Shown here: positions 28,787 through 56,282 of the stretch, piece by piece
Layout of the letters: each line of letters begins with the position of its first letter
How positions within the stretch are numbered: position 1 is the stretch's first letter
Translations under genes and position numbers: made by a program
Assembly (NCBI GenBank): GCA_036172245.1
Contig: JAYWIR010000070.1
Location: 372,001 to 436,000 of the forward strand
Length of the DNA: 64,000 nt
Reading direction: 5' to 3'
DNA from: Raillietiella orientalis
Taxonomy: Eukaryota
Notes under the pieces: model-generated
Seen by the model: only the letters and a program-made list of their open reading frames with translations
Database searches by the model: none
What the model was told of the DNA's origin: nothing

Positions 28787-31700
28787 TATTACCCGGTTGC
28801 ACCTGGACGTTTATTATAATATCAACTGAGAACTGTGTTCCCAGGCAAGGAGAACAGAAAATGGGGAGTAGATTTCCCGGAACGCAGTCCGGGCACACTG
28901 AGAGTTCGGAACGGGAGGGGGTGGGACAATAAATAAATAAATTGGGTGGGAGGGCGGGGACAGGGGTACACAGTCTAACCGTTCCTATTCTCAGAACCGG
29001 CGGTGAATGCCGCCGATCTCCGTCCTCACTTCTGCTCCAAGATGTGGCCACCCGGCAGCCATTTGCAGGTTGCAGGCTGCGGTGTCGGGGACCGATGTTG
29101 GGACTGCTCGCATCTGCAATACGTGGCGAGCCCTGACAATGGCGCGGACGCAGCAGATGATTGCGATGACCGCTCCAAGAGAAAGTCCGCCACGCGTGTA
29201 GAAGCGACGCATCCAATCCAGTGCGGTGTATCCAGGGTGCAGGAGCGCTGAAGACAGCCGCTGCCACAGCTCCTGGAGGGCACCGCACTCAAACAGCAAA
29301 TGCGGAAGCGAATCCACAGCTCCGCATTTGGCACAGTTCGGGGACGCAACTCCCCCGGAAATCAGGTGCGCCCGCTGGTTGCAGTACAAACCCCAATGCA
29401 CCAGCAGAAAGCGTCCTGCTTCCACCGAAGGGGGAAGAGAGTAGCGTCCAAACACGCCGAAGGGACCACAAGTTCATCGGTGGGCACCCCGAGGAGCTCA
29501 CTCCACCGGAGAAGCCCCTTTGCAAGAATGCGAGGTGTGGCAGCGTCTGCCACTTCGCAAGTCCGCCAGCCGCCCAGCAGTCGGGTTTCGCCTGCGATTT
29601 CGAAAGTGATCTCCCACCTCGCCGGCAGGTCACTGTCATCTCGCACCATCAGTGCACACAGTGCTTCGGCGAGTGGCGTAGCGACTAGGCGTGTCCACTG
29701 GTCCTGGTTTTCCAGCACCTCCCCCACTGGACAGTATGGGGAAAGTTTCACGCAACGGAGTTCCAAACGGGACACATCCTGTTGCGCTGCCCAGGACGAT
29801 AAGGCTTCCTGCCTCCAGGCGTTGAAGTTCGTCGGCCGGCAGGAGATCCACTCATGCTTTCCCAGAAGAGTGGCGAGCTGCTTCAAAGGGAAGCCGAATC
29901 CTCTCTGGGCGCGCTCCGTGCGCACATGCAACGAACGTAGTCCGTCGCCACCCGTGCTGCGCCGCAGCAGCAGCCGCGCTGGAGCACACCAGGGAGTAGT
30001 CCAGAGCTGCGTACAAAGTGCCAGCATGCGGAACTGCACTAGCAGTCCGATCCGCTCCAGCGTCAGGATGCCCAATCCTGCATCCCGCCGAGGAGCCGCC
30101 AAGTCCTTCAGGCGTATCCTGGACCTCGCCGGTCCCCACAGGGCGTTACGCAACAGGCGTTGCGCCCGGCGCTTAGCCGAGTAGGGAGGGGGACAAACAA
30201 AAAAGAGGGGACGGAGGAGGGGGGCAACGAAAATGTTTCACACGAAACCCGTTCCAACAGGAGAAACCTGCCGCCTTAGAACGGGCCCAGAGCAGTCTCG
30301 GCCTTGTGAAGGCAGTCCGACCACGCTTCTGCTGGACAGAAGGCGCCCAAGGGAACGACGAGGTACTTCAAGCACCTGCCCGTGGGGATCCCCAGGCAAA
30401 TCCAGTCGGACTGCACCTCTCACGTAGAGCCAACCGTTACAACGGTTGATTTCGTCCTGTTGACGCTCAGGCCCGCTCCCCGACGAATGAGCTCGAAGAA
30501 GTCCTCGAGCCTGGACGCCGGGGTGGACATGGGCAGCAGCAGGAGAAGGTCGTCAGCATAGGCGGCCACGGACGGTGTTCCCGAACAGGAGCTCGGCAGG
30601 TTGACCAGCGTCAGCCTGTACCTTCTCAGCACCAACTCAAAGAAGATGCTGAAGAGCAGGGGGCTTGAGCTGTCTCCCTGCCTGATACCCCGCCGTATGG
30701 GAATGCCGTACACGTGGCGCCCGCTGAAAGAGATACAGCATAACGCGTGGCGCCAGCAGGAGCGCAAGTAGGCGATGAGGTGCGTCGGGAGGCCTAGGCG
30801 TCCCAGAAGCTCCAGAAGGAGGTCCTGGTTTACGCTGTCGAACGCTTTGCAGAGATCGACGGCGACCGCTAAGGCTCCCGGGGTTCCATCGTGCCTTGAA
30901 CACCGCCGCTTTCCTTTGGCAGCGGCGATTTCGGCTGCCTGGCTCTGCTGCGCCACGCGCTGCTGCAACTCGAACCATGTTCGCGCGAAGAAGAGATTCG
31001 CGTCCATGGACCGCCCCGGAACAGCATACGTCTGCTCCGGACTTACCAAGGACTCTGCGATTCTCCCCAGGCGCGCACCCATAGCCTGGAGAACAACTTG
31101 ACGTCCGAATTGTCAGTGTTTAGTGTGCACTTCACTGGGAGAACCCAGTGTTTCCCTACAGTAAACATCTTTTTTAAAGACTTCATTATCTAATTTTTGT
31201 AAAAAATTAGAATAATAAATGCCCCGGCATATCCATGTGACAAACTTCGGATGCAGCCGAGCATTCCTGGCCAGCGTCATCGAGGAGACAAGCCGCTCCA
31301 GACTGCTAAACCTGGGGCTCGACCCTGGCCTTATACTCCGCCAGACGCCGGACGTCCGAGCATCGTGAAAAGGTACGCGCCTGCAGATAGGATCTGCTGT
31401 TCGCGACACCCTCCCTGAAGCCGCGGGGAAGCAGGTGCAAGGGGAACCGGCAGCAGAACTCGCGGACCGATCTTTTCAGATCGTCCCAGTCCTCGAGTTC
31501 ACAGATGGCGAAGCCACGGAGGTGTTGGCGGAGATGCTCCGCCGCCTCCGAATTGCTAAGCCAGTCGGCCGGCAACCTCCAGACATTCATCGGAGGCCCT
31601 TTGCCAGGCGGGAGGAGCTCGAACTCCAGTCTAGGATGATCCGAAATCGCGGACAGCAGGCGCCCTCTCCGACCTACTCGTAAGAGCAGGTGTTCAACGA

Positions 31701-34323
31701 GGAACGCATGGTCCGGCGATCTCTCCATCCCGGGCTCACCAGCAAGCAAGTTTTGCACGCTCACGGACGCGCATACCTCGCTCACCAGTTGCTTCTCCCT
31801 CAAGCGGCATCTCTCCTCTGTTAGCAGGTGGACGTTGAATTCTCCTGCAAGGAGGTGCGCCACGTTAGGGCCGGAGTCAGCGAGCCAGCGGCTGCGCAGG
31901 CCACCCGGGAATGCAAGTCGCTGGGCGTAATGCCGGCCACCGCTCGGCGCGTAGATGTTCGTAACGACCAGGTCGATCGATTCGGACCACTTGAGGACAA
32001 GTTGGTCCACACGACCTTCCTCGTCGAAACAAACGTTCCGCACCGCCTCCACCACCCTGCCTCGGACGAGGAACGCGACTCCACACGTGTGCGCGGAGCC
32101 TTGCCGTGAGTGTAGCGTCCCGCCCGCGCGCTCTTCCTGATCCGATGCCTGCCGTACGGAGATGCTCTGTATCTCCTGCAGCAGCATCAGATCGAACGGG
32201 CGCAAAGCGTTGGCTACCGTCCGCCATTTGTCACCATCACGTAGCCCGTTGACATTCCAACAGGCCACGCTGACGCGACGAGCGGAGGCGAGTCCACGCA
32301 TCACTGCTGCGGACATGACGGCGTGCTCCTCGCCCCGTCCGGCGAGAAGTCAGCTGGTAGGAGAGCGGATTGGGAAGCGGAATCGCTCCCGTTCGCCGCC
32401 ACATCGCGCCCAGCTGAGTCCTGGGAGCCGAGGATCATCGCCTCGGTCTCCGTGCAGGAGCCGGAACCGCCTCCGGCAACAGGCTCGTGCTTTCGCACTT
32501 TAGCCCGGCGCGCTACCGGCTTACCCCGGGATGCGCGCTCCATTTGTTTGCACTCGGACTCCACCTCGGAGTCCGAGTGCCTGGCGCGAGACTGGCGTTT
32601 TGACAGTCCCTTTTTGTTTCGGCAGGTGGAGGCTTGCCCTGCCCGCGCGGGTGTCGTCGCAGTCGCCAACGCAGCTTCCGGAGCTTTGGCTTCCGCAACC
32701 GCCCTCTCGCGCGAAGCGACGGAGACAGAGCACGCAGCCGTAGTGCGTACCTGGGTACGCACCTTCTTCGGCGTGCTTCTCTTTTGCCTCCCACCCACCT
32801 TAAGGATGGGGAATATTGAAGGGTCAACCTTCTTCTTCCCCTTTGTGGGCGTCCTGGAGACTCGAGTCCAGCCCGCGTCAAGGACGCCCTCCTGGGAGGC
32901 CGACGCCTCCCTCAATTGTTTGGCCGGAGATGCCGGCTCACGTTTCGCGCTCGCGGCGGGAGACGGCTCCGTCCCAGTTACGCACTGCACCTGCTCCTTA
33001 GCCGATGCGGGCGAAACGGCGGTCATTGCCGTCGTCCCGCGAGGCGCTACTGCAGCCTTCGCTGCTCTTGCCTTCGGCGTGGAAGACGTGATCTCCACCA
33101 CCGTAGGAGGAGGCTGCCGTGCAGAGGCAGCTCCGAGGGTACCCGCGCACGGTTTCCCGTGTGCTCCGCTGGACGCGCAAGCGGACGCGGACGGTTCAGC
33201 AGCCTTGATTAAGTGCGTGCCCGCACTCTTAGGCTGCTTCGAAGAAGGCGATTTGCCCCCAGGGCGACGTGGCATCTTTCCCGTCTGCGCGGTTGTCTGG
33301 GATGGTGGCTTCCCTGAAGCAACCGCGCCCTTTTTCGCGGGACCGCCACTCGAAGATGCCCCGCACTTCGCGCCCCATTTCTCCCGTGGCACAACGGGGG
33401 ATCCTTTTGGCTCGGACGGGGTCGATTGTTGGCGGCTTTTCGCCTGCCGCTTTCTCTTCAGCTCGGCGCACTCTTTGATGGAGTGGCCGAGCTGTTTACA
33501 ATAGTGGCAGTTGCGTGAAGGGCACGCCCACGGACGGTGGCCCTCGGCACCGGAAATGCCGCAAGCCGGTCGCTGACCGGCAAATTTAAGGTGGACGATC
33601 GCATCGCCCACCTGCAAGTGCGGAGGCATTTGCCTCCTATCCGCCATGGTGACACGCGCCATGGCAAGTCCGCTGTGGAGAGATGCAATCCTTTTGATCG
33701 GATTGTCTGCTTTCTACAGCGCGTGCACCGTGGCGAATGCACTTAGTGCAGCGACGAGCATGCGATCAGGCGTGTCCACCTGGACGGCGGATAATCGGAC
33801 CACGGACGACTGGTCCATGGCCGACGGGACGATCTCCTTCCCGCGGATATTTAGTGGGGTGCGGAGAAGGCGCTGGATTAGGGATGCCTCTTTGCAGTGC
33901 ACCTCCCAGTGTCCGAGCGCGTTAACCGGCATGACGGCCAGGAGGTCGTCCTGACGGACCCCGACTCGCAAAAGCACGTCCCACAAATTTTCTTCGACCC
34001 CGTCGGAGATAGAAGCACTCACCGGATAGCAGAGCGCAGGCTTGTAGCCATGGGCTGCATATGACTGCAGCTCTGCTTCGTCGGGCGGTGCTCCGTTGGC
34101 TGCCGCCGCCTTGACGACGGCGGCGAAGCTTCTCGCCGGTGGCGAGACACAAGAATCAGAGGCGGACCGCACATCTGGAGTAGAGTCTTTACTGCTAGTA
34201 GCAGCCTCCACATCCATCTTTTGCTGCAAGGGCTCCGTGGACATCCCAGTGGACGCACTCGGGCACACCACACACAAGAAGACGGAAAGGAATCACGCTC
34301 GAGGAGCAACACAGAACACGTCC
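28787..34323 (-). mobile_element. Element J: lineage III, both termini present; ORF1 34244-32301 (one premature stop), ORF2 32301-28991 (disrupted)
   Basis: 5' GGACGTG at 34323-34317 and 3' AATAAA-hairpin. TGATG stop/start overlap; APE, RT and CAKCGAVDSLPHLLFEC motifs. Imperfect TSD tgcagcgttgtcgt (28772-28785) / tgcaccgtcgtcgt (34325-34338). Confidence 0.93.
31111..31243 (+). mobile_element. Element K: isolated 3' terminus of a further family member inside J ORF2
   Basis: Ends aataaatgccccggcatatccatgtgacaa, similar to the D2 end aataaacgccccggcgcacccgggtgacaa. About 0.4 kb of J ORF2 is missing at this point. Confidence 0.7.
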
Positions 34324-34534
34324 GTGCACCGTCGTCGTCGAGCGTATTCCCGACGCTGCGAAAAAGAACTCGCCGCTACCGACGACAATCCCTCTGTTGA
34401 CTCTGTCAACAGCGAGGAGAGCGAGCCGGCGGCGGCGTCCGTCATCGACACCACCATCGATGACGTAGCCTTCGCGCGAGCCTCGGAGGAGCTGGCAGCC
34501 TCGTTGCAGCCAGCCCCCTCCGCGGCCAGTAGGA
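34324..34534 (+). mobile_element. Element H part 2: continuation of lineage II ORF1 after J
   Basis: Resumes CTVVVERIP..AAASVIDTTIDDVAFARASEELAASLQP, homologous to F ORF1 51180-51390. Confidence 0.88.
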
Positions 34535-34620
34535 GGACGTGTTTTTCCTTCACTCCCCAAAGAGTAGTAGGAAAGCGCTTTTTCTTCTGTGTGGTGTTTT
34601 GTGTACATCGTCGGTGTCCA

Positions 34621-36371
34621 ATGGCCACGACGCCAGAGGACACCGCGATGGAGGTGGGAGTGGGGGAGGTTAGTTCGCCCCCCAGCCTACTGGAGCAGGG
34701 GCAGCCGCCCCGGAATCATCCCCGGCCACGCCGAGGACATGGAGCGCCATGGTGGCCGCGCCAAGCGCAGAAGCCATGGCGGAGATGGCCGCATACAAGG
34801 CCTCCGGGTACAAGCCATCGCTTGTCTACCAGGTAGGCAACTTGTTCGACGGCCGGACAGCGCGCGCCTTCAGCAAAGCGTTGGAGGACGCAAATGTTAA
34901 TGAGAAGGATCTGGACGGCCTCTCCGTCCTCAGCGGCGGGCAGCGGGTCGAGGTGGTCTGCAAAGATGTCACCTTGGCTCACCGCCTAATCCATGCGCCG
35001 CTGAACGTAGACGGCCGCAAGATCCTGCCAGTATCAATGGACCGCTCCGTGGTGGTCCACATGACTGGCATCACCAGCCGCATGACGCGGTCAGCGGTTG
35101 GTGAGGAATTAAGAAAGTACGGTGAGGTGCACGCACTGTGGCCGAAACCCTCCATTTTCGACGGCTTCGATAGCCTTTTTGGTGGGCAGGCTACAGCGCG
35201 GGTGACCGTACGGGAGAATTGTGGGCTTCCCCACAAACTACAGGTGGCGCAAGAAAACGTCGACCTGTGGTATGTAGGGAAGCCCCGGTATTGCGGGCAT
35301 TGTGATGCCGTGGGACACCTACGTAAAAGGTGCCCCAATATACAATGCCATTTGTGCGGGGAGCGGGGCCACGTTCGGCGCGTGTGTCCCAAACGCCCCA
35401 CCCCGGTTCCCCCTGCCGCGAAAAAAGCGCAGGGGAAACGTGCTTCAAAGGTCTCTAGACCTAAAGTAGAAAAGGGCCAGCACAAGCTGCCAACACCTCA
35501 ACCTCCGGCAAGTAAGCCGGAGGATAAACCTTCTGAAACGGTGGAAGGCGAAGAGGGATGGCAGCTTGTAGAGGCCAGAAAACCAAGGAAACTCCCACCC
35601 GCGGAGAGCAAAGAGCGCAAGACGGCCGGAAAGCCGAAAAAACCCGGTCCGCGCTCGAAAACTCTGCGCGAGTGCACGGTGGCACTCGAACGAATCGTCG
35701 TTCCCGAGATTGCCACCCGGAGCGTCGATCCTCCCCTTGCCGTTTCCGCTGCGCCCGAGGCTCGCGACGGCGAACCCTCTGTTTACACAGAGGGTGAGCC
35801 GCGCGACATAGCGGCGGTCAAAGCTGCGGACGCCGCGTTCGCGCAGGCGGCGGAGGAGCTCGCGGTCACGCTGGCCGAGCGTGAGAACCCCTCGCGCAAG
35901 GCCGTGCGAAGGCCGGCTCCGGCGAAGAAGGCCCCCACAGGTGAGTTAGACCTGGGGGCCGGAAGCACATCCTCCTCCTCGGAGGCACCCCCCAGGAAGT
36001 CGGGACGCAAGTCCCAGAAGCCCAGGAGGCGCCTCCTCTCCACCAGCGAGGAGGAGAAGACGGAAGCCGTCGCCAGCGTGGGAAATTCAAAGGAGGAATT
36101 CCCACGCTCGGAAGCCGTCGATGCGGCCACCCCCATGGAGGAGGGTGAACAGGGGGGTGAAGTTTACCCTGCAGGCGCCGACCCTGAACAGCCCGCCCCC
36201 ATGGAGGAGGGCGAACAGGTAGGCGCGACTCCACCTGCGGGTGATCCGGCCGACGCGCCGGCACCGATGGAGGAGGGGGACCAGGTGCCTTCAGCACCTG
36301 ACCCCCCTCCTCCACCTAGCGTCCCGCCTCAGCAGGTGGCGGACGCCGCACTGCCATCTTCCCAGGAGTAA
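34621..36371 (+). pseudogene. a1 ORF1, gag-like (one frameshift near 34682)
   Basis: Near-identical to the intact a2 ORF1; two CX2CX4HX4C knuckles. Confidence 0.88.
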
Positions 36372-39300
36372 CACCTGGGCTCGCCAGTCGCCGTCGGATT
36401 CGCGCGGCTTGTTGGAATGTCAACGGGCTGCGCGACGACGGTAACAGGCGAGATACAGCCGACACCCTGCGGGAGTTCGACCTGGCCCTGTTGCAGGAGA
36501 TCCACGTGATCACCGCGGCAGACGTCCAGGAGATCGAGACGATCGCGGGGGGTCGGCTGTACTGGCACTGCGGCATCCGCAACACCTGCGGGGTCGCGTT
36601 CTTCGTGAAGCCGGCCATCGACGCTGCCGTGAAGGGCGTGCGCTTCGATGACGACGGTCGGGTCGGTCAGCTGACTCTCGGCTGGTCCGACTCGATCGAT
36701 CTGATCGTCACGAATGTGTACGCCCCAGCCGGTCAAAAGGGATACAGTAACCGTACCCGGCTGCTTGAATCCCTGAAGCGCGACTGGCTGGCGGACACGA
36801 ACGTGCGGAAGGCTCACCTGATAGCGGGAGATTTCAATCTCCGCCTGCTAACAGGTGAGCCGGAAACACAAGTGAACGCGATGAGCGAGTTGTGCGCAGT
36901 CATCCGTGTGCGCTACTTGTTATCGGGTGAAAAAGGAATGGTCCGCAGCATCGACCACGTCTTCCTGGACGCTGACCTGTGTTCACGCGTCGGCAAACGG
37001 GGGAGGGTTGTGTCGACGTTGTCGGACCATTCCCGGCTAATTTTCGAGATGCGGCCTCGCGACAAAGGACCGCCATCCAGGGATTGGCGTCTGCTGGGGG
37101 ACTGGACGCGACTCTCAGGTGCGAAGGAACACCTTCGCGAATACCTGAGAGGCGTCACGCTCCGGAATCTCTAGGACTGGGACCTTTTTGAGGAATCGGT
37201 CCGCGATTTCTGTGAGCAGTTCCCCCTGGATCGCCTGTTCCCCGGATTCGGCGAGTGTGCTCGCAACCATCGGGCCTATTTACAGGCTCGTAGGTACGAG
37301 TGAACCCCTAATGTCCGTCGCCTGGCCGAGTACCGCGCCGGGGCCGAACGCCAAGCCTGGCAATCCGGGTCGGCCAGCTTGCTGGAAGGCCAGGGCCGGG
37401 AATGTTCGTCCCCGGCGTCGGTACGGCATCTCGTGCGGAGTTATTATTCCTCCCTGTACGCCAGGGCGCCCCCGGATCAAGATGCCTCTCGGCTCTTGCT
37501 TCCGGATGGTGCCCCGGCAATAGGGGAGGAGGAGTCGTTAAGCCTCGATGAGCCTTTGACCACCGGCGAAATTCTCGCCGGTATCAAAAGGCTCAAGAGG
37601 CGGAAAGCTCCAGGGGAAGACGGCTTGCCCGCGGAGTTCTATCAGAGCTTCGCGGAAGAGCTGGCACCCCTGCTGCTTCAGCTGACAAGGCTGATCCGAG
37701 ACGAAGGCGATGTTCCCGCCTCGTTTCGGTCAGCCAGAGTGAGGCTCCTTCCGAAAGGGGGAGACCTTAGGAATTTGAACAACTGGCGTCCGATCACGAT
37801 TGTGAATACGGACGCCAAGTTGGTTGCCGGGCTATGGGCTTCGCGTCTGGGGCAGGTGGCAGAATCCATTATTAGCCCGGAGCAGACATATGCTGTTCTC
37901 GGGCGAAGTATGGATGCCAACCTCTTCTTCGCGAGCACGTGGATGCACGCGCAGAGGTGTCAAAAGGAAGGGAAAGGAAAAATCGGCAACCCCACTTTGG
38001 GGCCGCCAGCAGGGCAGGGAATGGACTCCCGGGCGGGGAAGGAGGCCTTAGCGCTCGCAGTCGATCTCCATAAGGCGTTCGACTGTGTTGACCAGGGGCT
38101 TTTGTTGGAGCTCCTGGGTCGCATGGGCTTCCCACCCTCCTTGATCAACTACCTGCGCTCCTGCTGGCGCCATGCGATAATTTCCGTCTCTTTCAGTAGT
38201 CAGAAGGTGCATGGCGTGCCGGTGCGGCGGGGCATCAGGCAGGGAGATAGCCTGAGTCCCCTGCTCTTCAGCACCTACTTTGAGTTGGTGCTGAGAGCCT
38301 ACAGGGTGACTTTGGCCTCCTTGCCTAGCTCGTGTCCCGGCACGCCCGCCGTAGCAGCCTATGCCGACGACCTTCTGCTCCTGTTACCTATGTCCACCCC
38401 GGCGAAGGCGGTCGGAGACTTCTTCGATCTGCTCAGCCGTGGAACCGGACTGCAGGTCAACAGGGCGAAGTCGTCGGTGGTGCCAGTAGGTGCGGCGTGG
38501 GCAGGGCAGCAGGACTGGGTCCGTCTGGGGATCCCCACGGCGAGGTGCATCAAGTACCTTGGTGTGCCGTTGGGTGACTACTCCCCTGCGGAAGCGTGGT
38601 CCAGCTGTCTTCAAAAAGTTGAGACGGCGATCGGCCCGTTCCTGGAAGGCAAGTTTCACTTGCCGGAACGGGCCGCGGTTTGGAACGCCTTCGCGGCCCC
38701 CATCCTCCGCCCCTTGCTTTTTGTTTGCCCCGCCCCCAGAGAATGCAAAAAGAGGACGAAGGACCTTCTCCGCATCGCCCTTTGGGGCAAGGGGAGGCCC
38801 CGAGTCCCTCTGAAGGACTTGTGCGCTCCGCGTCGGGATGGCGGCCTTGGCCTCCTGACGCTGGAGCGCGTGGAAATTCAGCTGCGGTGGCGAACCCTCG
38901 CCATCGCAGCGAAGATGTGGAGCACCCCTTGGTGCGTTCCGGCCCGCCACCTCGCCAGGCGTGTGTCCCGATGCGAAGGACTCGCGTCGTTTCTTCTGTG
39001 CCCTGGCCGGAAGATCCGAAGATGCGGCCTTATGCTCGGACGCATAGCAACCTTGGCGAAGACGAACGGTTGGATGGTTTGTGGCCCCGCCAACTCCTCC
39101 GCCTGGTTGGAGGAGTCTGCTGGCACATGGGCTAAGCTGAACCGGAGGAGTGAAAACCACATGAACTGCCTGCGAATCGGCCCATACGCCAACCGCACCC
39201 TGCGGGAAATACTGGAATTTCCTCGGAGTCGCAGGTGGGCGTTGACGACCCCCCTTGCTACGGCGATGCCCTACCTCCTGAGGGCGCTTCAGGATCGCCA

Positions 39301-39967
39301 GAAGCCGAGGTGGCAAGTCACCTGCCAGATCGCAGGCAGGGAGAAGATGTTAAGCAGCTGGACCACAGGAGAACTGGCGGACGCCACGACCCCGAGCGTC
39401 CAGCCGCGTGGATTAATGAGATGGGGCGAGCTGCTCGCCATCCCTACGGATGTGCTGAAGTGGCCCCCGGTACTAAAGGAATCCAGGATCCTGCCCCTTA
39501 AGTGGCAAGAGTCGGCGTTGCTATTGCTGCACTGGGGTTTACCCTGCAACGCACGCCGCTTCCACTGGACAAGGGGAGCTGTGGACCCTGAGTGTGTCAG
39601 GTGCGGAGAGCGGGAATCGCTCTCCCACCTTATTGTGGACTGTGCTGCCATCCGACCCCTCTGGGAACGGTTCGGGGCGACCCTAGGGCTCCCTACGAGC
39701 AGCACCCCCAGAGACGTTCTTCGGCCCCTCTTCGTGAAGGACGCACTGCAGCCAGCCGCAGCCATCGCAGCCTTGTGCTGTGTCCGTGGCATCGTGGCTG
39801 CATGGAGCGACGCCAATAACGAAGGAGTGGGTCCACACGCGAGGGATGTCATCCCATACGCCCAACGCTTCATGCGGAGAGCTGCCGGATGGCCCCAACT
39901 GGGGAATATACGGACGGACCTCGAGGGCTTCCTTCAACGGATGGGCCCTCCTCACAGCGCTCAGTGA
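36371..39967 (+). pseudogene. a1 ORF2: APE endonuclease - reverse transcriptase - CCHC, ~1199 codons in one frame with two premature stops (37172, 37301)
   Basis: WNVNGL, QEIH, YAP, GDFN, IDH, SDH; KAPGEDG, WRPIT, DLHKAFD, RQGDSLSP, YADD, KYLG, GGLGL; CVRCGERESLSHLIVDC. Confidence 0.93.
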
Positions 39968-40148
39968 TCCCTTCCCTGCCCTCCAACTTCTTTTTGTCTG
40001 TTTATTTTTTTTATTTTTCTTTTTGTTTTATCCCCATCCCCCTTCGCTGCTGAGGAACGCTACGCTGGGCTGCGTCCCGGTGTCCCGGCAGGTCCAGTGC
40101 ATATGGCTGTGAGCGGGGCCTAGTACCGCGGATGTAGAGTTTTTTAAA

Positions 40149-40179
40149 AATAAACGCCCCGGGCGTACCCGGGTGTAAA
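40149..40179 (+). terminator. Conserved element 3' terminus: AATAAA plus GC hairpin (representative of nine copies)
   Basis: aataaacgcCCCGGGcgtaCCCGGGtgtaaa; equivalents at 21508, 25503, 28787, 31214, 42832, 47013, 52648 and 62077. Confidence 0.75.
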
Positions 40180-40197: not shown

Positions 40198-42830
40198 GGA
40201 CGTGTTTTTCCTTTACTCTTCAAGAGTAGTAGGAAAGCGCTTTCTTCTGTGTGGTGTTTAGTGTACATCGTCGGTGTCCAATGGCAACGACGCCAGAGGA
40301 CACCGCGATGGAGGTGGGAGTGGGGGAGGCTAGTTCGCCCCCACAGCCTACTGGAGCAGGGGCAGCCGCCCCGGAATCATCCCCGGCCACGCCGAGGACA
40401 TGGAGCGCCATGGTGGCCGCGCCCAGCGCAGAAGCCATGGCGGAGATGGCCGCATACAAGGCCTCCGGGTACAAGCCATCGCTTGTCTACCAGGTAGGCA
40501 ACTTGTTCGACGGCCGGACAGCGCGCGCCTTCAGCAAAGCGTTGAAGGACGCGAATGTCACTGAGAAGGATCTGGACGGCCTTTGCGTCCTCAGCGGCGG
40601 GCAGCGGGTCGAGGTGGTCTGCAAAGATGTCACCTTGGCTCACCGCCTAATCCATGCGCCGCTGAACGTAGACGGCCGCAAGATCCTGCCAGTATCAATG
40701 GACCGCTCCGTGGTGGTCCACATGACTGGCATCACCAGCCGCATGACGCGGTCAGCGGTTGGTGAGGACTCGCGAAAGTACGGTGAGGTGCACGCACTGT
40801 GGCCGAAACCCTCCATTTTCGACGGCTTCGATAGCCTTTTTGGCGGGCAGGCTGCATCGCGGGTCACCGTAAGGGAGAATTGTGGGCGTCCCCACAAACT
40901 ACAGGTGGCGCAAGAAAACGTCGACCTGTGGTATGTAGGGAAGCCCCGGTATTGCGGGCATTGTGATACCGTGGGACACCTACGTAAAAGGTGTCCCAAT
41001 ATACAATGCCATTTGTGCGGGGAGCGGGGCCACGTTCGGCGCGTGTGCCCCAAACGCCCCACCCCGGTTCCCCCTGCCGCGAAAAAAGCGCAGGGGATAC
41101 GCGCATCAAAGGTCTCTAGACCTGAAGTGAAAAAGGGCCAGCACAAGATGCCAACACCTCAACATCCGGCGCGTAAGCCGGAGGATAAACCTTCTGAAAC
41201 GGTGGAAGGCGAAGAGGGATGGCGGCTTGTAGAGGCCAGAAAGCCTAAGAAACTCCCATTCGCGGAGAGCAAAGAGCACAAGACGGCCGGTAAGCCGAAA
41301 AAACCCGGTACGCGCTCGAAAACTCTGCGCGAGTGCACGGTGGCACTGGAACGAATCGTCGTTCCCGAGATTGCCACCCGGAGCGTCGATCCTCCCCTTG
41401 CCGTTTCCGCTGCGCCCGAGCCTCGCGACGGCGAACCCTCCGTTTACACAGAGGGTGAGCCGCGCGACATAGCGGCGGTCGAAGCCGCGGACGCCGCGTT
41501 CGCACAGGCGGCGGAGGAGCTCGCGGTCACGCTGGCCGAGCGTGAGAACCCCTCGCGCAAGGCCGTGCGAAGGCCGGCTCCGGCGAAGAAGGCCTTCACA
41601 GGTGAGTTAGACCTGGGGGCCGAAAGTACATCCTCCTCCTCGGAGGCACCCCCCAAGAAGTCGGGACGCAAGTCCCAGAAGCCCAGGAGGCGCCTTCCCT
41701 CCACCAGCCAGGAGAAGAAGGAAGCCGTCGACAGCATGGCAAATTCGGAGGAGGAATTCCCACGCTCGGAAGCCGTCGATCCGGCCACCCCCATGGAGGA
41801 GGCTGAACAGGGGGGTGAAGTCCCCCCTGCAGGCGCAGACCCTGAACAGCCCGCCCCCATGGAGGAGGGCGAACAGGTAGGCGCGACCCCACCTGTGGGT
41901 GACCCGCTCGACGTACAGTTTCCTATGGAGGAGGGGGACCAGGTGCCTTCAGCACCTGACCCCCCTCCTCCACCTAGCGTGACGCCCCAGCAGGTTGCGG
42001 ACGCCGCACTGCCACCTTCCCAGGAGTAACACCTGGGCTCGCCAGTCGCCGTCGGATTCGCGCCGCCTGTTGGAATGTCAACGGGCTGCGCGACGACGGT
42101 AACAGGCGAGATACAGCCGACACCCTGCGGGAGTTCGACCTGGCCCTGTTGCAGGAGATCCACGTGATCACCGCGGCAGACGTCCAGGAGATCGAGACGA
42201 TCGCGGGGGGTCGGCTGTACTGGCAATGCGGCATCCGCAACACCTGCGCGGTCGGGTTCTTCGTGAAGGCGGCCATCGACGATGCCGTGAAGGGCGCGCG
42301 CTTCGATGACGACGGTCGGGTCGGTCAGCTGACTCTCGGCTGGTCCGACTCGATCGATCTGAACGTCACGAATGTGTACGCCCCAACCGGTCAAAAGGGA
42401 TACAGCAACCGTATCAGGCTGCTTGAATCCCTGAAGCGCGACTGGTTGGCGAACACGAGCGTGAGGAAAGCTCACCTGATAGCGGGAGATTTCAATCTCC
42501 GCCTGCTAACAATTGAACCGGAAACACAAGTGAAGGCGATGAACGAGTTGTGCGCCGCCATGCGTGCGCGCAACTTGTTCGCGGGTGAGAGGGGAATAGT
42601 CCGCAGCATCGACCACGTCTTCCTCGACGCTGACCTGTGTTCACGGGTCGGCAAACGAGGAAGGGTTGCGTCAACGTTGTCGGACCATTCCCGGTTAATT
42701 TTCGAGATGCGGCCTCGCGACAAAGGACCGCCATCCAGGGACTGGCGTCTGCCGGGGGACTGGACGCGACTCTCAGGTGCGAAGGAACACCTTCGCGAAT
42801 ACCTGAGAGGCGTCACGCTCCGGAATCTCC
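40198..42830 (+). mobile_element. Element a2: lineage I, tandem to a1, interrupted after the APE domain by E
   Basis: Near-identical to a1 34535-37170; cut at VTLRNL. Confidence 0.94.
40281..42029 (+). CDS. a2 ORF1, intact (582 aa) gag-like nucleic-acid-binding protein
   Basis: Open frame from ATG 40281; knuckles CGHCDTVGHLRKRC and CHLCGERGHVRRVC; acidic PMEEGE repeats. Confidence 0.9.
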   Translation: MATTPEDTAMEVGVGEASSPPQPTGAGAAAPESSPATPRTWSAMVAAPSAEAMAEMAAYKASGYKPSLVYQVGNLFDGRTARAFSKALKDANVTEKDLDGLCVLSGGQRVEVVCKDVTLAHRLIHAPLNVDGRKILPVSMDRSVVVHMTGITSRMTRSAVGEDSRKYGEVHALWPKPSIFDGFDSLFGGQAASRVTVRENCGRPHKLQVAQENVDLWYVGKPRYCGHCDTVGHLRKRCPNIQCHLCGERGHVRRVCPKRPTPVPPAAKKAQGIRASKVSRPEVKKGQHKMPTPQHPARKPEDKPSETVEGEEGWRLVEARKPKKLPFAESKEHKTAGKPKKPGTRSKTLRECTVALERIVVPEIATRSVDPPLAVSAAPEPRDGEPSVYTEGEPRDIAAVEAADAAFAQAAEELAVTLAERENPSRKAVRRPAPAKKAFTGELDLGAESTSSSSEAPPKKSGRKSQKPRRRLPSTSQEKKEAVDSMANSEEEFPRSEAVDPATPMEEAEQGGEVPPAGADPEQPAPMEEGEQVGATPPVGDPLDVQFPMEEGDQVPSAPDPPPPPSVTPQQVADAALPPSQE

Positions 42831-42831
42831 A

Positions 42832-45800
42832 TTGAAACCCGGGTGCGCCGGGACGTTTATTCTTACGAATAAACCTATACAATCTGTGACTGGACCAGTA
42901 GTCCAGCCACGCCCTGGAAAGATATAGCTTGCCGGGCTACCGATGCGCAAACCGCCGCGGTCGACCTCGGCAGCAGAGGGGAGGGGGAACGGAACAAAAA
43001 GAAAACAAAAAATAAACAAAAATCAGGGAGGGAGCAGGAAGGGATCACAGTCTGCTGGGAGGGTTCGTCATCCTCTGGAGGATGCCGGCAAGCTGTTTCT
43101 GCGTGTGTGGTTCCAGATGGGGCCATCGCGTCGCCATCCTGAGGAAACGAGCGGCATACACGTTGGCAACCCTGTCGCTGGTTCCTCCCGTCGCTTTGCT
43201 CCATGCCACGACGATCCCGCGTAGGCAGCACAGGGCTGAAAGCTAGGCCGCTGGAGGCAGGGCGTCACGGACGGAGAGGGGGCGCAAAGCGTCTCTGGGG
43301 TCACCTCCGTGGATCCCCAGGGCTGCGGCAAAACGTTCCCACAAGGGACGGAGGGCAACACAATCCACTAACAGGTGGGGGAGTTATTCCCTCTCCCTGC
43401 ACCTGACACAATTAGGGTTGACACCCTCCCGCGTCCAGTGGTGTCGGCGGGCGTTGCAAGGAAGCCCCCAATGCAACACCAGCAGTGCCGACTGTTGCCA
43501 CTTCATGGGGGGGGTGCGCGAGTCCATGAGCACCGGGGGCCAATCGAGATGTTCCTCTGGAACATCCAGTAGCTCTTTCCAGCGCAACAGTCCATTTGGG
43601 GTGGTCCTCGGGGTCGCAGCGTTGGTGAGCTGACCTGTTCTCCAATCCCCGATCTTCTTTGCCCTGCTGGCGATCTTGACAGTAACCTCCCATTGTGCCG
43701 CGACGTCGCTGCCCAGATGTTCCCGTAGGGTAGGCAGTACCGCAGCAAGGGAGGTTCTTTGTGCCCACGCTCTCCTTCGAGGATTCTCGATGATTTCTCG
43801 GAGCGTGCGGCGGGCATGCGGCCCGAACAGAGCTATTCGCTCGTGTTGCGGGCTCTGCTCCTGAATCATCGCCCACGTGCGGACGGTTTCCTGCAACCAG
43901 GCAAGACCGTTCGCGGGGCGTACGAGGATCCGCGCCGAGTTGTTCTTCACGAGCTTGGCCGCCCTCCGAAGTTGAAGTCCGCAGTGGCAGATGGGGCTTC
44001 GGAGTGCAAAGTAGGACGAGAGTCCCGCATTGCCGGTGGCCCGCTCGACGAGGAGACGTGCAGGGAGCCACCAAGGGGTGCACCAATTTTCTGCCATAAA
44101 GGCAACAACTCGGAACTGGAGCTGTAGCTCCAGCCGCTCCAACGTCAGGAGGCAGAGACCACCATCCCGACGAGGAGCGCACAAGTCCGAAAGACGGACT
44201 CGGGGCCTCCCTCTGCCCCAAAGGGCGATCCTCAGGAGGTCCTTCGTCCTCTTCTTTGACTCCGCTGAGGGAGGGCAAACAAAAAACAAGGGGCGGAGGA
44301 GGGGGGCCGCAAATGCGTTCGACGCCGCGGCCCGTTCATGCAGGAAGAAGACGCCGTCCTGGAACGGGCCGATCGCCGCCTGAACCTTCTGAAGGCAGCC
44401 GGACCACGCTTCCGCAGGGGAGTAATCCCCCAACGGCACACCAAGGTACTTGAAATACCTCACCGTGGGGATCCCCAAACGGACCCAGTCCTGCTGCTCT
44501 GCCCACGCCGCTCCGACTGGCACTACGGACGACTTCGCCCTGTTCATCGTCAGTCCTGTTCCACGACTCAGCAGGTCGAAGAAGTCCTCGACCGCCGAGG
44601 CCGGGGTGGACATAGGCAGCAGCAGCAGAAGATCGTCCGCGTACGCCGAAACCGCAGGCGTACCGGGGCAATCGCACGGCAGGTGCGCCAGAGTCTCCCT
44701 GTAAGCTCTCAGCATTAATTCGAAAAAGGCGCTAAAGAGCAGGGGGCTCAGGCTGTCTCCCTGCCGTATGGCGCGTCGCACCGGTACTCCGTGCACGGTT
44801 CGCCCGCTGAAGAGAACATTAATGAGCGCGTCGCGCCAGCTGGAGCGCAGGTAGGCCAACAAAGAGGCCGGGAATCCCAAGCGTTCTAGAAGCTCCAGCA
44901 GGAGATTCTGGTCGACGCTGTCGAATGCTTTACGCAATCGACATCGACCGCAAGGGCTCCCTTCCCCACCCGACCGTTCCGTCTCCCGCTAACAGACGCA
45001 CCGTAATTCCGGCTGCTCAATAAGTCCCTTCCTTGTTGGAGCTCTAACCATGTGGAAGCGTGGAACAGGTTCGCCTCCATGCTCCGCCCGAGAACAGCAT
45101 AAGTCTGTTCCGGGCTGATGAAGATGTTGGCAACCCGTCCCAGACGCTCTGCCCACATCTTGGCTATCAACTTAACGTCCTCATTCACTATTGTGATGGG
45201 ACGCCAGCTGTTCACGCTCCTCAGGTCTCCACCCTTAGGGAGGAGCCGCACCTTTGCCGAACGAAACGAGCCGGGAACGTCACCTGTTTCGCGTATCAGC
45301 AAGATGAGTTGCTGTACCAGGGGGGTAAGCTCAGCCGCGAAAGTTTGGTAAAACTCCGCGGGCAGGCCGTCCTTCCCTCGAGCTTTCCGCCTCTTGAGCT
45401 TTCCGATGGCCGAGAGGATCTCGTCCATCGTGAAAGGCTCGTCGAGGCTTCTTTTCTCCTCCTCCCCGATCGCTGGAGCACCTTCCGGGAGCAGAAATCG
45501 TGAGACGTCTCGCTCCGGAGGCGCCCTGGCGTACAGGGAGGAGTAAAATTTCTTCACAATCCCGCGCTTCTGAGCAGGAGCCGAGTGTTCCCGGCCCTGG
45601 TCGTCCAGCAAGCTAGCCGACCCGGATTGCCAGGCTTGCCTCTTGGCTCCCGCTCGATACTCTGCTAACCTGCGCATGTCGGGGGTTCTCGCGTAACTTC
45701 GGGCCTGAAGATAGCACCTTTCGTTACGCGGCTTCTCCCCAAATCCCGCAGGTAGGCGATGCAGGGGGAACTGGTCGCAGAACTCCTGGACCGACCGCTT

Positions 45801-47012
45801 GAAGCGGTCCCAGTCCTGAAGTGTCTGCATCCTGAAGCTCCGAATAAACGCACGGAGGTGCTCCGCCGAGCCGGGAAACTTCAGCCAGTCCCCTGGCAGA
45901 CGCCACGCTGACGAGGGGGGCCCCCGTGGCGCGGATGGATCTCGAGGACTAGCGGGCGATGGTCGAACAGCTCGCACGGTAACTTGCCGCGCCTGCCCAC
46001 GCGAGGGCACATGTGCTCGTCAAGAAACACGTGGTGAATGCTGTTTTCCATCCGCGGTGCACTGGCCAACAAATTACTGGTGTGCACCGCCATGCACTCC
46101 TCGTTGTCCAGGTCACGCTCGGGTTTCTGTCCATCTGGTTTCAGGCGAACGTTAAAATCGCCTGCAACAGGATGGGCATCCCGCACGCCTGCTTTGGTCA
46201 GCCAGTCTCTACGGAGAGCAAGGAAAATCACTTTCCTCTCCCTCCTAGTCATCAGGTCTGCGCCGCTCGGTGCGTACACGTTCGTTACGATCAGATCGAT
46301 CGAGTCGGACCACCTGAGAGTCAGCTGGCCGACACCACCGTCATCGTCGAACCGCACGTTATGAGATGCGGCCTCGACGGATGGCCGAAGCAGGTAGGCG
46401 ACACCGCAACTTTTCGCTATCCCACACCTGTACCATAGTCGCCCTCCGGAGATCCGTCCGATCTCTTCCGCTTGTTCTGCAGAGATCACGTGGATCTCCT
46501 ACAGCAGCGCAAGGTCGTAGGGCTCTAGAAGGGCGGATATGTCTCGTCTCCTGCCGGCGTCTGTCATGCCGTTCACGTTCCAAACGGCGATGCGCAGACG
46601 ACGGCGGGAGGAGATTCCCGGCATTACTGCTGCGAAGATTAAGATGTGGAAGAGCCCGCCTCTTGCGAGGCAGGCGGGATGTCCATGGGGGTTTCGGCCT
46701 TTTCAGGCACCTGAGGCACCTGTTCGGCCTCCTCCCCCATCTAGAACCCTCCATCCGTGTCATTGCGTGGGAGTCTCTCGGGCGACGGGTCCCGAGAGTT
46801 TCCCACGCTCATGGCACCCTCGCTTGCGGAAGCCATCTCTTCCCCTTCGACGGGGGAGACAAGCTTCCTTGGCTTTGTGGACTCACGTCCAGCCTTCTTG
46901 CGGGGTGCCGTGGAAACGGAGGCTGCGCTTCCAGCCTCCACCTCGGGGTCGGAAGTGGGGGACTCCTGAGGGGAGGCCGGACGCCTTACGGCCTTCTTGC
47001 CAGCCTTGGAGG
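42832..47012 (-). mobile_element. Element E: lineage II, 3' end, frameshifted ORF2 (46624-43045) and ORF1 C-terminus
   Basis: TAATG overlap at 46626-46622; APE, RT and CVRCRERE motifs. Cut in ORF1 at SKAGKK by a3. Confidence 0.93.
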
Positions 47013-50000
47013 TTTACACCCGGGTACGCCCGGGGCGTTTATTGGTAAAACTCTACATCGGCGGTACAAGGCCCCGCTCACGGCCATATGCACTGGACCT
47101 GCCAGGACGCCGGGACGCAGCCCAGCGTAGCGTTCCTCAGCAGCGAAGAGGGATGGGGATAAAACAAAAAGAAAAATAAAAAATAAACAGACAAAAAAAG
47201 AAGTTGGAGGGCAGGGTTGGAGGATCACTAAACGCTGTGAGGAGGGCCCATCCGTTGAAGGCAGCCCTCGAGGTCCGTCCGTATATTCCCCAGTTGGGTC
47301 CATCCGGCAGCTCTCCGCATGAAGCGTTGGGTGTATGGGATGACATCCCTCGCGTGTGGACCCACTCCTTCGTTATTGGCGTCGCTCCATGCCGCCACGA
47401 CGCCACGGACACAGTACAAGGCTGCGATGGCTGCGTCTGGCTGCAGTGCGTCCTTCACGAAGAGGGGCCGAAGAACGTCTCTGGGGGTGCTGCCCGTAGG
47501 GAGCCCGAGGGTCGCCCCGAACCGTTCCCAGAGGGGTCGGATGGCAGCACAGTTCACAATAAGCTGGGAGAGCGATTCCCGCTCTCCGCACCTGAAACAC
47601 TCAGGATCCACAGCTCCCCTTGTCCAGTGAAAGCGGCGTGCGTTGCAGGGTAAACCCCAGTGCGGCAGTAGCAACGCCGACTCTTGCCACTTAAGGGGCA
47701 GGATCCTGGATTCCTTCAGTACCGGGGGCCACTTCAGCACATCCGTAGGGATGGCGAGCAGCTCGCCCCATCTCATCAATCCACGAGGCTGGACGCTCGG
47801 GGTCGTGACGTCCGCCAGTTCTCCTGTGGTCCAGCCGCTCAACATCTTCTCCCTGCCTGCGATCTGGCAGGTGACTTGCCACCTCGGCTTCTGGCGATCC
47901 TGAAGCGCCCTCAGGAGGTAGGGCATCGCCGTAGCAAGGCAAGTCGTCCACGCTCACCTGCGACTCCGGGGAAATTCGAGTATTTCCCGCAGGATGCGGT
48001 TGGCGTATGGGCGGATTCGCAGGCAGTTCACATGGTTTTCACTCCTCCGGTTCTGCTTAGCCCATGTGCCAGCAGACTCCTCCAACCAGGCGGAGGAGTT
48101 GGCGGGGCCAGAAACCATCCAACCGTTCGTCTTCGCCAAGGCTGCTATGCGTATGAGCATAAGGCCTCATCTTCGGATCTTCCGGCCAGGACACAGAAGA
48201 AACGACGCGAATCCTTCGCATCGGGACACACGCCTGCAGAGGAGGCGGGCCGGAACGCACCAAGGGGTGCTCCACATCTTCGCTGCGATGGCGAGGGTTC
48301 GCATCCGCAGCTGGATTTCCTCGCGCTCCAGCGTCAGGAGGCCAAGGCCGCCGTCCAGACGCGGAACGCACAAATCCTTCAGAGGGACTCGGGGCCTCCC
48401 CTTGCTTCAAAGGGCTATGCGGAGGAGGTCCTTTGTCCTCTTTTTGCATTCTCTGGGGGCGGGGCAAACAAAAAGCAAGAAGCGGAGGATGGGGGCCGCA
48501 AAAGCGTTCCAAACCGCGGCCCGTTCCGGCAAGTGAAACTTGCCTTCCAGGAACGGGCCGATCGCCGTCTCGACTTTTTGGAGGCAGCTGGACCACGCTT
48601 CCGCAGGTGAGTAGTCCCCCAACAGCACATCAAGGTACTTCAGGCACCTCGCCGTGGGTATCCCCAGACGGACCAAGTCCTGCTGCCCTGCCCACGCCGC
48701 ACCTACTGGCACCACCGACGACTTCGCCCTGTTGACCTGCAGTCCGGTCCCGCGGATGAGCAGATCGAAGAAGTCTCCGACCGCCTTCGCCGGGGTGGAC
48801 ATAGGTAACAGAAGCAGAAGGTCGTCGGCATAGGCTGCTACGGCGGGCGTGCCGGGACACGAGCTCGGCAAGGAGGCCAAAGGCACCCTGTAGGCCTTCA
48901 GCACCAACTCAAAGTAGGTGCTGAAGAGCAGGGGACTGAGGCTATCACCCTGCCTGGTGCCCCGCCGCACCGGCACGCCATACAACTTCTGAATACTGAA
49001 AGAGATGGAGATAATCGCATTCCGCCAGCAAGAGCGCAGGTAGGTAATCAAGGAGGGTGGGAAGCCCATGCGACTTAGGAGCTCCAACAAAAGCTCCTGG
49101 TCAACACAGTCGAACGCCTTATGGAGATCGACTGCGAGCGCTAAGGCCCCCTTCCCCGCCCGGGAGTCCATTCCCTGCCCTGCTGGCGGCCCCAAAGTGG
49201 GGTTGCCGATTTTTCCTTTCTTTTCCTTTTGACACCTCTGCGGGTGCATCCATGTGCTCGCGAAGAAGAGGTTGGCATCCATACTTCGCCCGGGAACATC
49301 ATATGTCTGCTCCGGGCTAATAATGGATTCTGCCTCCTGCCCCAGACGCGAAGCCGATAGCCCGGCAACCAACTTGGCGTCCGTATTCACAATCGTGATC
49401 GGACGCCAGTTGTTCAAATTCCTAAGGTCTCCCCCTTTCGGAAGGAGCCTCACTCTGGCTGACCGAAACGAGGCGGGAACATCGCTTCGTCTCGGATCAG
49501 CCTTGTCAGCTGAAGCAGCAGGGGTGCCAGCTCTTCCGCGAAGCTCTGATAGAACTCCGCGGGCAAGCCGTCTTCCCCTGGAGCTTTCCGCCTCTTGAGC
49601 CTTTTGATACCGGCGAGAATTTCGGCTGTGGTAAAAGGCTCATCGAGGCTTAACGACTTCTCCTCCCCTATTGCCGCGGCACCATCCAAAAGCAAGAGCC
49701 GAGAGGCATCTTGATCCGGAAGCGCCCTGGCGTAAAGGGAGGAATAATAACTCCGCACGAGATGCCGTACCGACGCCGGGGACGAACATTCCCGGCCCTG
49801 GTCGTCCAGCAAGCTGGCCGACCCGGATTGCCAGGCTTGGCGTTCGTCCCCGGCACGGTACTCGGCCAGGCGACGGACATTAGGGGTTCTCTCGTACCTA
49901 CGAGCCTGTAAATAGGCCCGATGGTTGCGAGCACCCTCGCCGAATCCGGGGGGCAGGCGATCCAGGAGGAACTGCTTGCAGAACTCCCGGACCGATTCCT

Positions 50001-50034
50001 TAAAAAGGTCCCAGTCCTGGAGATTCCGGAGCGT
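47013..50034 (-). mobile_element. Element a3: lineage I, 3' end and ORF2 downstream of APE (disrupted)
   Basis: Near-identical to a1 37157-40179 in reverse orientation. Confidence 0.94.
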
Positions 50035-55600: not shown

Positions 55601-56282
55601 GCAGGGGAAACTCCTCGCAGAACTCGCGGAACGAGGCCTTGAAGAGGTCCCAGTCTTGGAGACTGCGGAGGGTGACACCTCTTAGGATTTCGCGAAGGTG
55701 TTCTTTCGCACCTGTGAGCTGCGTCCAGTCCCCAGGCAGCCGCCACGCCCTGGACGGGGGTCCTTTGTCGCGCGGGCAAACCTCGGCGATGATCCTGGAA
55801 TGGTTCGACAGCGTCGACGCAACTTTTCCCCGTTTGCAAACCCGCGAGCACAGGTCGACATCCAGGAAGAAGTGGTCGATGCTGCGGTCCATTCCCTCCG
55901 CGTCTGCCAACAAGTTGCGCGTGCGCATGGCAGCGCAAAACTCGTTGGCCGTGCGTTCTTGTGCTTCGGGCTCACCTGACAGCAGACGGAGATTGAAGTC
56001 TCCAGCTATCAGGTGTGCCTTCCGCACATTCGTGTCGGCCAGCCAATCGCGCTTCAAGGTTTCCAGCAGCCTGGTACGGTCGCTGTATCCCCCTTTTCCG
56101 CTCGGGGCGTACACGTTCGTGACGATCAATTCGATCGAGTCGGACCAGCTGAGAATCAGCTGACCGACCCTACCGTCGTTATCGAAGCGTACGCCCTTCA
56201 CGGCAGCGTCGATGGCCGGCTTGACGAAGAACGCGACCCAGCAGGTGTTGCGGGCGCCGCATCGCCAATACAGTCGACCCCC
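52648..56282 (-). mobile_element. Element G, 3' part: lineage I subfamily, ORF2 from GGRLYW to the 3' end
   Basis: Homologous to a1 ORF2 and 3'UTR; frameshifted. Confidence 0.93.

Follow-up and report, generated by a model that had tools for sequence, protein, structure and literature searches.

In a 64,000-nucleotide stretch of the Raillietiella orientalis genome (GenBank assembly GCA_036172245.1, contig JAYWIR010000070.1, positions 372,001 to 436,000 of the forward strand; hereafter the window, in whose own numbering all positions are given), we found a family of long interspersed nuclear elements (LINEs) whose apurinic/apyrimidinic endonuclease (APE)-type endonuclease (EN) has about 20 residues fewer than related ENs in the region of the target-recognition hairpin. 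The family represents a compact variant of the L1/Tx1-type EN, which is under selection and resides in truly site-specific elements. Copy a1 (34531 to 40179, forward strand, with ends approximate to a few bases) carries open reading frame 1 (ORF1) and ORF2, the latter containing the EN, a reverse transcriptase (RT), and a putative C-terminal CCHC motif, and would be an L1/Tx1-like LINE. Its catalytic core and L1-EN fold appear to be intact, and both DNA-facing parts between the GDFN motif and the following catalytic Asp would have been cut to about half. The canonical 24 amino acids (aa) in front of this Asp comprise a D.WR..HP turn and a protruding two-stranded hairpin entering the minor groove; a short loop (residues 174 to 185) would stand in their place here. 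We lean, by a little, toward regarding this loop as a short irregular stub at the hairpin base, with neither the T...S anchors nor the ribbon.

Spacing and selection of the endonuclease

The EN domain of a1 (36398 to 37054, forward strand; residues 1 to 219 of the model, with residue 1 being the Ile at 36398) lies in an open frame extending from 36398 to 37171, with the RT downstream in the same frame. It was recognized by PF03372 (E value of 5.6e-14; score of 52.8 bits, cut-off of 24.5; ORF residues 32 to 237) and by phmmer against L1-EN (E values of 8.5e-7 to 1.4e-6), as well as by AlphaFold2, Foldseek, and VIA-align (described below). The catalytic set is complete, consisting of N7, E34, Y108, D145 and N147 of the GDFN motif (G144 to N147, 36827 to 36838), D186 followed by H187 (36953 to 36958), and S209-D210-H211 (37022 to 37030), all on the forward strand; the last two motifs were placed by phmmer and by an alignment of 43 sequences, across which the catalytic residues are invariant or nearly so and G144 and N147 do not vary at all. 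Human L1-EN has the same catalytic residues and the same N-terminal location in ORF2, upstream of the RT.

The IDH motif of a1 occupies residues 185 to 187 (36950 to 36958), and the intervening 37 aa are residues 148 to 184 (36839 to 36949), compared with 56 aa in human L1-EN. The preliminary description of this DNA, which was made from the letters and translated frames, had counted the same 37 aa, had listed the N, E, Y, D-N, D, and H motifs as retained, and had put human L1 at ~56 aa; the first two observations were confirmed, and the third agrees with the published positions N147, I204, and D205 (PMC1950540; this and the other articles are cited from the portions of their text that were available). 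By tblastn, seven EN copies were detected in the window, which are 49 to 91% identical to a1 and make up the whole family alignment. Combined with the alignment, this search showed a spacing of 37 aa in a1, a2 (42056 to 42829, forward strand; 91% identical, open frame), E11 (55659 to 56285, reverse strand; 78% identical, with residues 1 to 49 missing where E12 was inserted), E10 (51799 to 52565, forward strand; 58% identical, one stop), and E8 (45819 to 46597, reverse strand; 51% identical, one stop), and of 39 aa in E6 (31495 to 32274, reverse strand; 50% identical) and E12 (58343 to 59122, forward strand; 49% identical, PDH for IDH). Single catalytic changes occur in decayed copies, namely, GEFN in E6, IHH for IDH in E8, and SNH in E11. 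Thus, the earlier statement that the spacing is similarly short across lineages holds for 7 of 7 copies, and so does the reported lack of a D.(W/Y)R..P....T(W/F) segment, which was found in the GDFN-IDH interval of none of the seven; a Thr/aromatic hairpin anchor was likewise seen in 0 of 7.

To control for chance, 36 canonical relatives were made into a profile, which was run over all proteins collected. A residue was present in both motif columns in 102 sequences, and 101 of these had N and D; in this sample, which was picked by similarity to the a1 element and is mostly L1/Tx1/RTE-like, the N-to-D spacing was 42 in P0135 and 50 to 73 in the others, with a mode of 60. The spacing in the window family (38 to 40) is below that of all 101 relatives measured. 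Moreover, all seven window ENs drop out of the canonical-profile alignment directly after GDFN, and in a whole-library HMMER search the alignment of most of the 141 hits stops near query residue 147 to 150. Relatives of more than 36% identity in the latter search were N-terminal fragments only, the fragments including P0037 (54% over residues 1 to 97) and P0038 (36% over residues 2 to 119). No further family member covering the GDFN-IDH region was found by the whole-library HMMER search, a word-based RT search, or a metagenome scan; two loci proposed by the metagenome scan proved false on translation.

The ratio of nonsynonymous to synonymous substitution rates (dN/dS; Nei-Gojobori method) of the EN was 0.15 to 0.36 between lineages, with dS close to saturation for the deepest pairs, and 0.45 between a1 and a2. 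The between-lineage values indicate a working design and not decay, and the compact EN layout has persisted while the family diversified from beginning to end. It is true that every copy in the window is damaged somewhere, by stops, insertions, or single catalytic changes, as would be expected if the short spacing were an artefact of deletion in dead copies. However, that explanation is very improbable, considering that the same 37- to 39-aa layout recurs in all seven copies despite identities of only 49 to 91%, that dN/dS is low between lineages, that the target duplications are intact, and that some copies are 95% alike.

Stub loop or miniature hairpin

AlphaFold2 was run on the 43-row alignment, which contains the 7 window copies and 36 relatives, and returned an a1 EN model with a predicted local distance difference test score (pLDDT) of 88 and a predicted template modeling score of 0.82. 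The top Foldseek matches of the model were human L1-EN entries (E values of 1e-17 to 1e-16, template modeling scores of 0.70 to 0.80), and VIA-align aligned it to L1-EN with a Z score of 26.0 to 26.3 and a root mean square deviation of 2.1 Å over 208 residues, the runners-up being ExoIII homologues and APE1 (Z scores of 23 to 24.6). The human enzyme (1VYB, 7N8S) is the best match of the window EN in both sequence and structure, and the predicted fold is a four-layer alpha/beta sandwich of the L1-EN type.

Between GDFN and Asp186, DSSP assignment of the model gave, all on the forward strand, a shortened post-GDFN loop (LRLLTGEP, residues 148 to 155, 36839 to 36862; 8 aa versus 16 in the control described next), a helix of 13 aa as in the control (residues 156 to 168, ETQVNAMSELCAV, 36863 to 36901), two residues, a short core strand (residues 171 to 173, VRY with N for Y in 6 of 7 copies, 36908 to 36916), and a residual loop of 12 aa, compared with 24 aa in canonical relatives (residues 174 to 185, LLSGEKGMVRSI, 36917 to 36952), which leads into the Asp186 strand. 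This loop is irregular, with no strand or bridge before residue 186 and a helical turn at 181 to 183. The pLDDT averaged 71 for residues 151 to 160, 84 for 161 to 170, 90 for 171 to 180, and 93 for 181 to 190. The control, a model of the canonical relative P0159 made from the same 43 sequences (pLDDT of 92.9), shows a 16-aa loop, a 13-residue helix (161 to 173), two residues, a strand (176 to 178) formed by the L-I-D of the D.WR motif, a helix (179 to 183, IWRHL), and, after a loop, hairpin strands at 192 to 193 and 199 to 200, followed by the Asp203 strand. Its alignment to L1-EN covered 233 residues (Z score of 32.7 to 32.9), and the L1-EN residues without a counterpart numbered about 25 in the a1 model versus 2 to 3 in the control.

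Since a helix, two residues, and a short strand follow one another in both models, VRY was read as the counterpart of L-x-D, and we infer that strand 171 to 173 is the second strand of a beta-alpha-beta unit, adjoining the GDFN strand. On this correspondence, the 12-aa loop takes over from the 24 aa of the WR..HP turn and the hairpin, and the post-GDFN loop is shorter by another 8 aa. In addition, both MAFFT and hhalign (probability of 99.9) leave the ascending T-W arm of the hairpin without a counterpart. The preliminary description had proposed that the target-recognition hairpin is lacking and that a fold prediction should be inspected for an equivalent one; the AlphaFold2 model contains none and the control keeps one, although a short hairpin is still allowed by some alignments, so that this proposal is supported in part.

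Several points weigh against a stub. BLASTP of a1 against P0159 is gap-free over the 16 residues that lead to the catalytic Asp, where it pairs VRYLLSGEKGMVRSID with IQFTWHGRKNQKSRID, deletes only HLNPTK, and keeps the hairpin. BLASTP to P0159 and phmmer to the L1-EN variant 2v0s (loop variant LR1) both set YLLSGEKGMVRS on the hairpin without a gap, phmmer placing RYLLSGEKGMVRSIDH on that of 2v0s, and the hairpin length given by the YLLSGEKGMVRS placement is between those of the R1Bm and L1 hairpins. The family pattern, composed of NLLA, a variable G/P/D-rich 4-aa turn, and M-x-R-S before (I/P)-D-H, reads like a 4+4+4 hairpin, in which the conserved L174, L175, A176, and M181 flank the variable tip. 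L174 and L175 stand at 12 and 11 residues before Asp186 (D-12/D-11), between the Thr-Phe anchor of R1Bm (Thr175 and Phe176 before Asp186, D-11/-10; PMC1919474) and the anchor of L1 (Thr192 before Asp205, D-13/-12; PMC1950540). P0033, another LINE-type EN, has a spacing of ~32 aa when read by eye, with a T-F...S-x-D motif still visible, and short spacing alone is therefore no proof of hairpin loss. Among solved structures, P0033 matched RT chains only. Furthermore, the equation of VRY with L-x-D comes from a DSSP pattern match and beta-alpha-beta logic, not from residue-level superposition; the AlphaFold2 input already carried the MAFFT gap placement; and only the seven window sequences inform this region, so that local confidence is possibly overstated. 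The loop is also reduced rather than absent, its 12 residues occupying the hairpin-base position.

These points would suit a short but real beta-hairpin of about R1Bm size, with arms YLLS and MVRS and the turn GEKG, in which case the missing ~20 aa would come from the post-GDFN loop and the D.WR..HP linker only and the specificity element would be a miniature with a lineage-variable tip. We regard such a hairpin as possible but on the unlikely side, given that the model has neither strand nor bridge in 174 to 185 and is helical at 181 to 183 with a pLDDT of 90 to 93, that MAFFT and hhalign remove the T-W arm instead, that the conserved Thr and aromatic anchors of R1Bm EN, as described in the available text of PMC1919474, are replaced by Leu-Leu, and that the post-helix core strand of the control would be left without a counterpart.

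If the loop is a stub, the family departs from the LINE ENs described so far. In L1-EN, the hairpin loop spans aa 193 to 202 and is anchored by Thr192 and Ser202, with Pro197 and His198 entering the minor groove (PMC1950540, PMC8565326); neither this Thr192/Ser202-anchored hairpin nor the D.YR..HP segment of the human enzyme can be found in the window EN sequence. R1Bm and TRAS1 (2EI9, 1WDU) are site-specific APE-type ENs, as is the window EN. According to the available passages on R1Bm, whose residue numbers are the basis of our comparison, its hairpin (176 to 183), though short, is a feature that the authors regard as common to every LINE EN solved, and several surface residues share in its specificity, which changes both with Y98A, outside the hairpin, and with N180A, within it (PMC1919474). 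In R1Bm, unlike in the window EN, the Thr175-Phe176 anchor is retained and the hairpin is clear, and the GDFN motif is followed by an extended loop that includes helix alpha3, at the place of the shortened loop of the window EN (PMC1919474). The Tx1L hairpin loop, with 11 residues, is longer than that of L1 (PMC1950540), whereas the window region is shortened.

The engineered L1-EN L3G, in which three glycines replace the hairpin loop, resembles the reduced window EN in its very short linker; its nicking was nearly abolished, with no significant duplex nicking and the preference for supercoiled DNA lost (PMC1950540). In contrast to L3G, the window family has transposed and is under purifying selection, and it must therefore compensate somehow. 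Plant RTE ENs have a naturally shortened hairpin, a possible cause of their altered nick specificity or insertion signature, which is only 2 aa shorter (PMC6007223), while the window region is ~20 aa shorter and its anchors are gone. Judging from the available portions of this literature, a LINE EN with its hairpin cut to a stub would be unusual; no description of a LINE EN without a hairpin, or of LINE lineages targeting each other, was found in the open-access text searched, which does not prove that none exists.

Site-specific insertion and the basis of site choice

From 20874 to 64000 (20.8 to 64 kb), the window is a solid block of retrotransposons without long terminal repeats (non-LTR), with ~60% GC. 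Junction sequences revealed at least 13 LINE copies, drawn from several lineages (at least four lineages of the family occur in the window), that fill these 43 kb as a staircase nest, each copy being interrupted by the next. E1 is cut by E2, E2 by E3, E3 by E4, and E4 by D1, which consists of E5 and the fragment 34323 to 34530 and contains E6/E7 (with a ~14-bp duplication) and the tandem pair a1-a2. Beyond this pair, a2 is cut by E8, E8 by E9, E9 by E10, and E10 by E11/E13, which contains E12 with a 13-bp duplication (ACAGTCGACCCCC). Two 15- to 16-bp overlaps of oppositely oriented halves had been considered as signs of inversions, an explanation that was rejected because the junctions represent different insertions at the same site within the nest.

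Within the 64-kb window, to which the assessment of target-site reuse is confined, four target sites in the coding sequences of sister lineages were each used twice, with duplications of 13 to 16 bp, which bears out the preliminary description of the elements as site specific. The first site, in the EN-RT linker of the a-type ORF2 (CGCTCCGGAATCTCCA, antisense), was used by E8 (3' junction, in a2) and E10 (5' junction, in E9); the second, in ORF1 and starting with CCTCC (sense), by a1/a2 (5' junction and the 14-bp spacer between the tandem copies) and E9 (3' junction, in E8); the third, in EN-coding sequence and ending with ..CTGT (antisense), by E12 (both junctions) and E4; and the fourth, in the c-type RT (CGCAAGGCGTT.GATT, antisense), by E2 and E5. 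The E12/E4 pair is possibly not independent, because 2.3 kb across the junction, including 250 bp of flank, are 91.5% identical (25253 to 27588 versus 62359 to 60017); the ORF1 parts of E3 and E13 farther from the E3/E4 and E13/E12 junctions are 64 to 69% identical. This identity patchwork could reflect gene conversion, a recombinant element, or 3' transduction. Reuse of the same nucleotide at three or four sites within elements of ~5.7 kb cannot be chance.

The lineage-specific insertion sites are GC rich and lie inside sister lineages, as indicated by the junction sequences, and the nick sites have no common motif, which implies a separate target for each lineage. It appears that the lineages serve one another as landing pads. 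In this respect they can be compared with the Tx1 clade, whose members are also APE-type LINEs with specific target sequences. According to the available text on crocodilian Tx1D elements, their targets are piggyBac, Mariner, Harbinger, and LTR elements (PMC4494074); many members of the Tx1 clade target other transposons, and the window lineages target coding sequences of sister LINE lineages.

With the conserved residues as a guide, the enzyme would nick DNA by the usual metal-dependent mechanism, and the junctions show that the elements integrate by target-primed reverse transcription, leaving the duplications of 13 to 16 bp. If the groove-probing finger has been reduced to a stub, site choice probably relies on more than loop 174 to 185 and would depend on the remaining EN surface together with another part of the ORF2/ORF1 ribonucleoprotein. 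The preliminary description had concluded that an element without the usual specificity loop must read its target another way, which is plausible, but "must" is too strong. The hairpin is one contributor among several to specificity, and loops of other elements grafted into L1-EN did not transfer specificity, according to the passages available (PMC8565326, PMC1950540, the former statement also PMC1919474); because this is so even in canonical enzymes, the step to other recognition is not forced. The complete scenario, in which the family has lost the hairpin and the D.WR..HP platform of every solved LINE EN yet inserts with single-nucleotide precision at GC-rich, non-repetitive sites, site choice has moved to another ribonucleoprotein module, and the lineages form a mutual landing-pad network, is rather doubtful in our opinion.

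Conservation within the EN is lowest at residues 148 to 185, where mean pairwise identity is 0.41 versus 0.59 elsewhere, falling to 0.30 at the loop tip (177 to 180). The differences between a1 and a2 are concentrated here (11 of 38 positions versus 13 of 220 elsewhere; Fisher's exact test, P = 1e-4), and synonymous differences between the two copies are raised in the same patch. Such variation fits a fast-evolving surface. One could therefore suppose that the spacing has little to do with targeting, a weakly constrained surface having shrunk by deletion, that nick preferences are loose, as the lack of a common motif among the nick sites of different lineages would allow, and that the exact sites are set wholly by the C-terminal zinc-finger region of ORF2, the ORF1 protein, or RNA-DNA contacts. 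At the tip, the ENs of E8 (SAPR) and E10 (GDTA) are indeed unlike despite their common target, which also led us to reject the tip as a simple specificity code; the tips of a1 and a2 (GEKG and GERG) are nearly alike. Nevertheless, this supposition is improbable. L174 is invariant (7 of 7), the six copies other than a2 have L at position 175 and M at position 181, where a2 has F and I, respectively, and positions 173, 175, 176, 181, and 184 hold the same residue in 5 to 6 of 7 copies, so that the loop is not free to vary, its most variable part being the 4-aa tip. Moreover, by eye, no complementarity was seen between the 3' ends of the elements (..AA) and the flanks, and specificity resides in the EN itself in those site-specific APE-type LINEs that have been studied, as far as the available text of PMC1919474 goes. 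The loop tip gives no clear signal for or against a stub.

The hairpin has been the main handle in attempts at L1 re-targeting. If a selected EN with a stub and exact sites is confirmed, it would show which other surfaces or partners supply specificity and could offer a compact scaffold for engineering. Lineages that lie side by side with a common architecture and different targets constitute a ready set of comparisons by which specificity determinants could be mapped. If the loop is instead a short hairpin, what remains is a known design in an unusually compact form.

Other features of a1 and its surroundings

The ORF1 of a1 (34674 to 36371, forward strand) encodes CCHC zinc knuckles detected by PF00098 (E value of 0.00099), whose score of 19.5 bits is just under the curated cut-off of 20.8. 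Tx1-type ORF1s carry CCHC knuckles as well. In the C-terminal part of ORF1, a 66-nucleotide tandem duplication (36127 to 36286, 72% identical) encodes acidic repeats of the PMEEGEQ type, and the equivalent region differs from copy to copy. At 36320 to 36400, the ORF2 frame shares ~50 nucleotides with the end of ORF1, and no ATG precedes the EN. ORF2 translation is presumably coupled to that of ORF1 by reinitiation or frameshift.

The RT and the C-terminal part of ORF2 (37304 to 39967, forward strand; PF00078 E value of 4.2e-22) are in frame with the EN. Between them lie two stops in this frame, TAG (37172 to 37174) and TGA (37301 to 37303), by which a1 is slightly decayed. The TAG reads CAG in a2 and in the sister copy E9 (50010 to 50020, reverse strand), and so represents a single C-to-T change. 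At the ORF2 C terminus, a C-x2-C...H-x4-C string was seen in the translation, and zf-RVT (PF13966) gave a match (E value of 0.0037) whose 18.3 bits fall short of the curated cut-off of 27.5. In the word-based search, the a1 RT gave one fragment of 67% identity (P0001), the remaining relatives being 20 to 30% identical, and the closest named relatives were unclassified fish, frog, and plant RT proteins (24 to 30% identity). In E3, an a-like EN start (82% identical) follows an ORF1 that is only 47% identical to that of a1.

Adjoining the GC-rich LINE block, the window contains an AT-rich stretch (6000 to 12000, 34 to 37% GC) with one long open frame (9572 to 10381) encoding a Lys/Ser/Pro-rich protein of 269 aa. 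This protein matched no Pfam family above threshold and had no homologue among longer proteins, and an initial guess that it is an SPT2-like gene was dropped as unsupported.

At the 3' end, a1 has an untranslated region (UTR) with a CCCGGG-N4-CCCGGG stem-loop and terminates in ..TGTAAA. Five 3' ends are recognizable in the window (40150 to 40179 and 62078 to 62106 on the forward strand and 47013 to 47042, 42836 to 42860, and 25503 to 25531 on the reverse strand), and all five have AATAAAC, followed by a CCCGG(G)-N4-CCCGGG stem-loop and T..(A/C)AA; the 3' end of E11 is ..GGACA. None of the five, including that of a1, has a poly(A) tail or any A-run, whereas the strict L1 clade has a 3' poly(A) tail. 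The stem-loop suggests recognition by the RT. At the opposite end, GACGTG occurs within the first ~15 bases of seven 5' ends (34531, 40194, 23353, 27589, 50035, and 56298 on the forward strand and 34322 on the reverse strand). It takes the form GGACGTG at six of them, including that of a1, and AGACGTG at 27589, and the surrounding 5' UTRs of different lineages are unlike one another.

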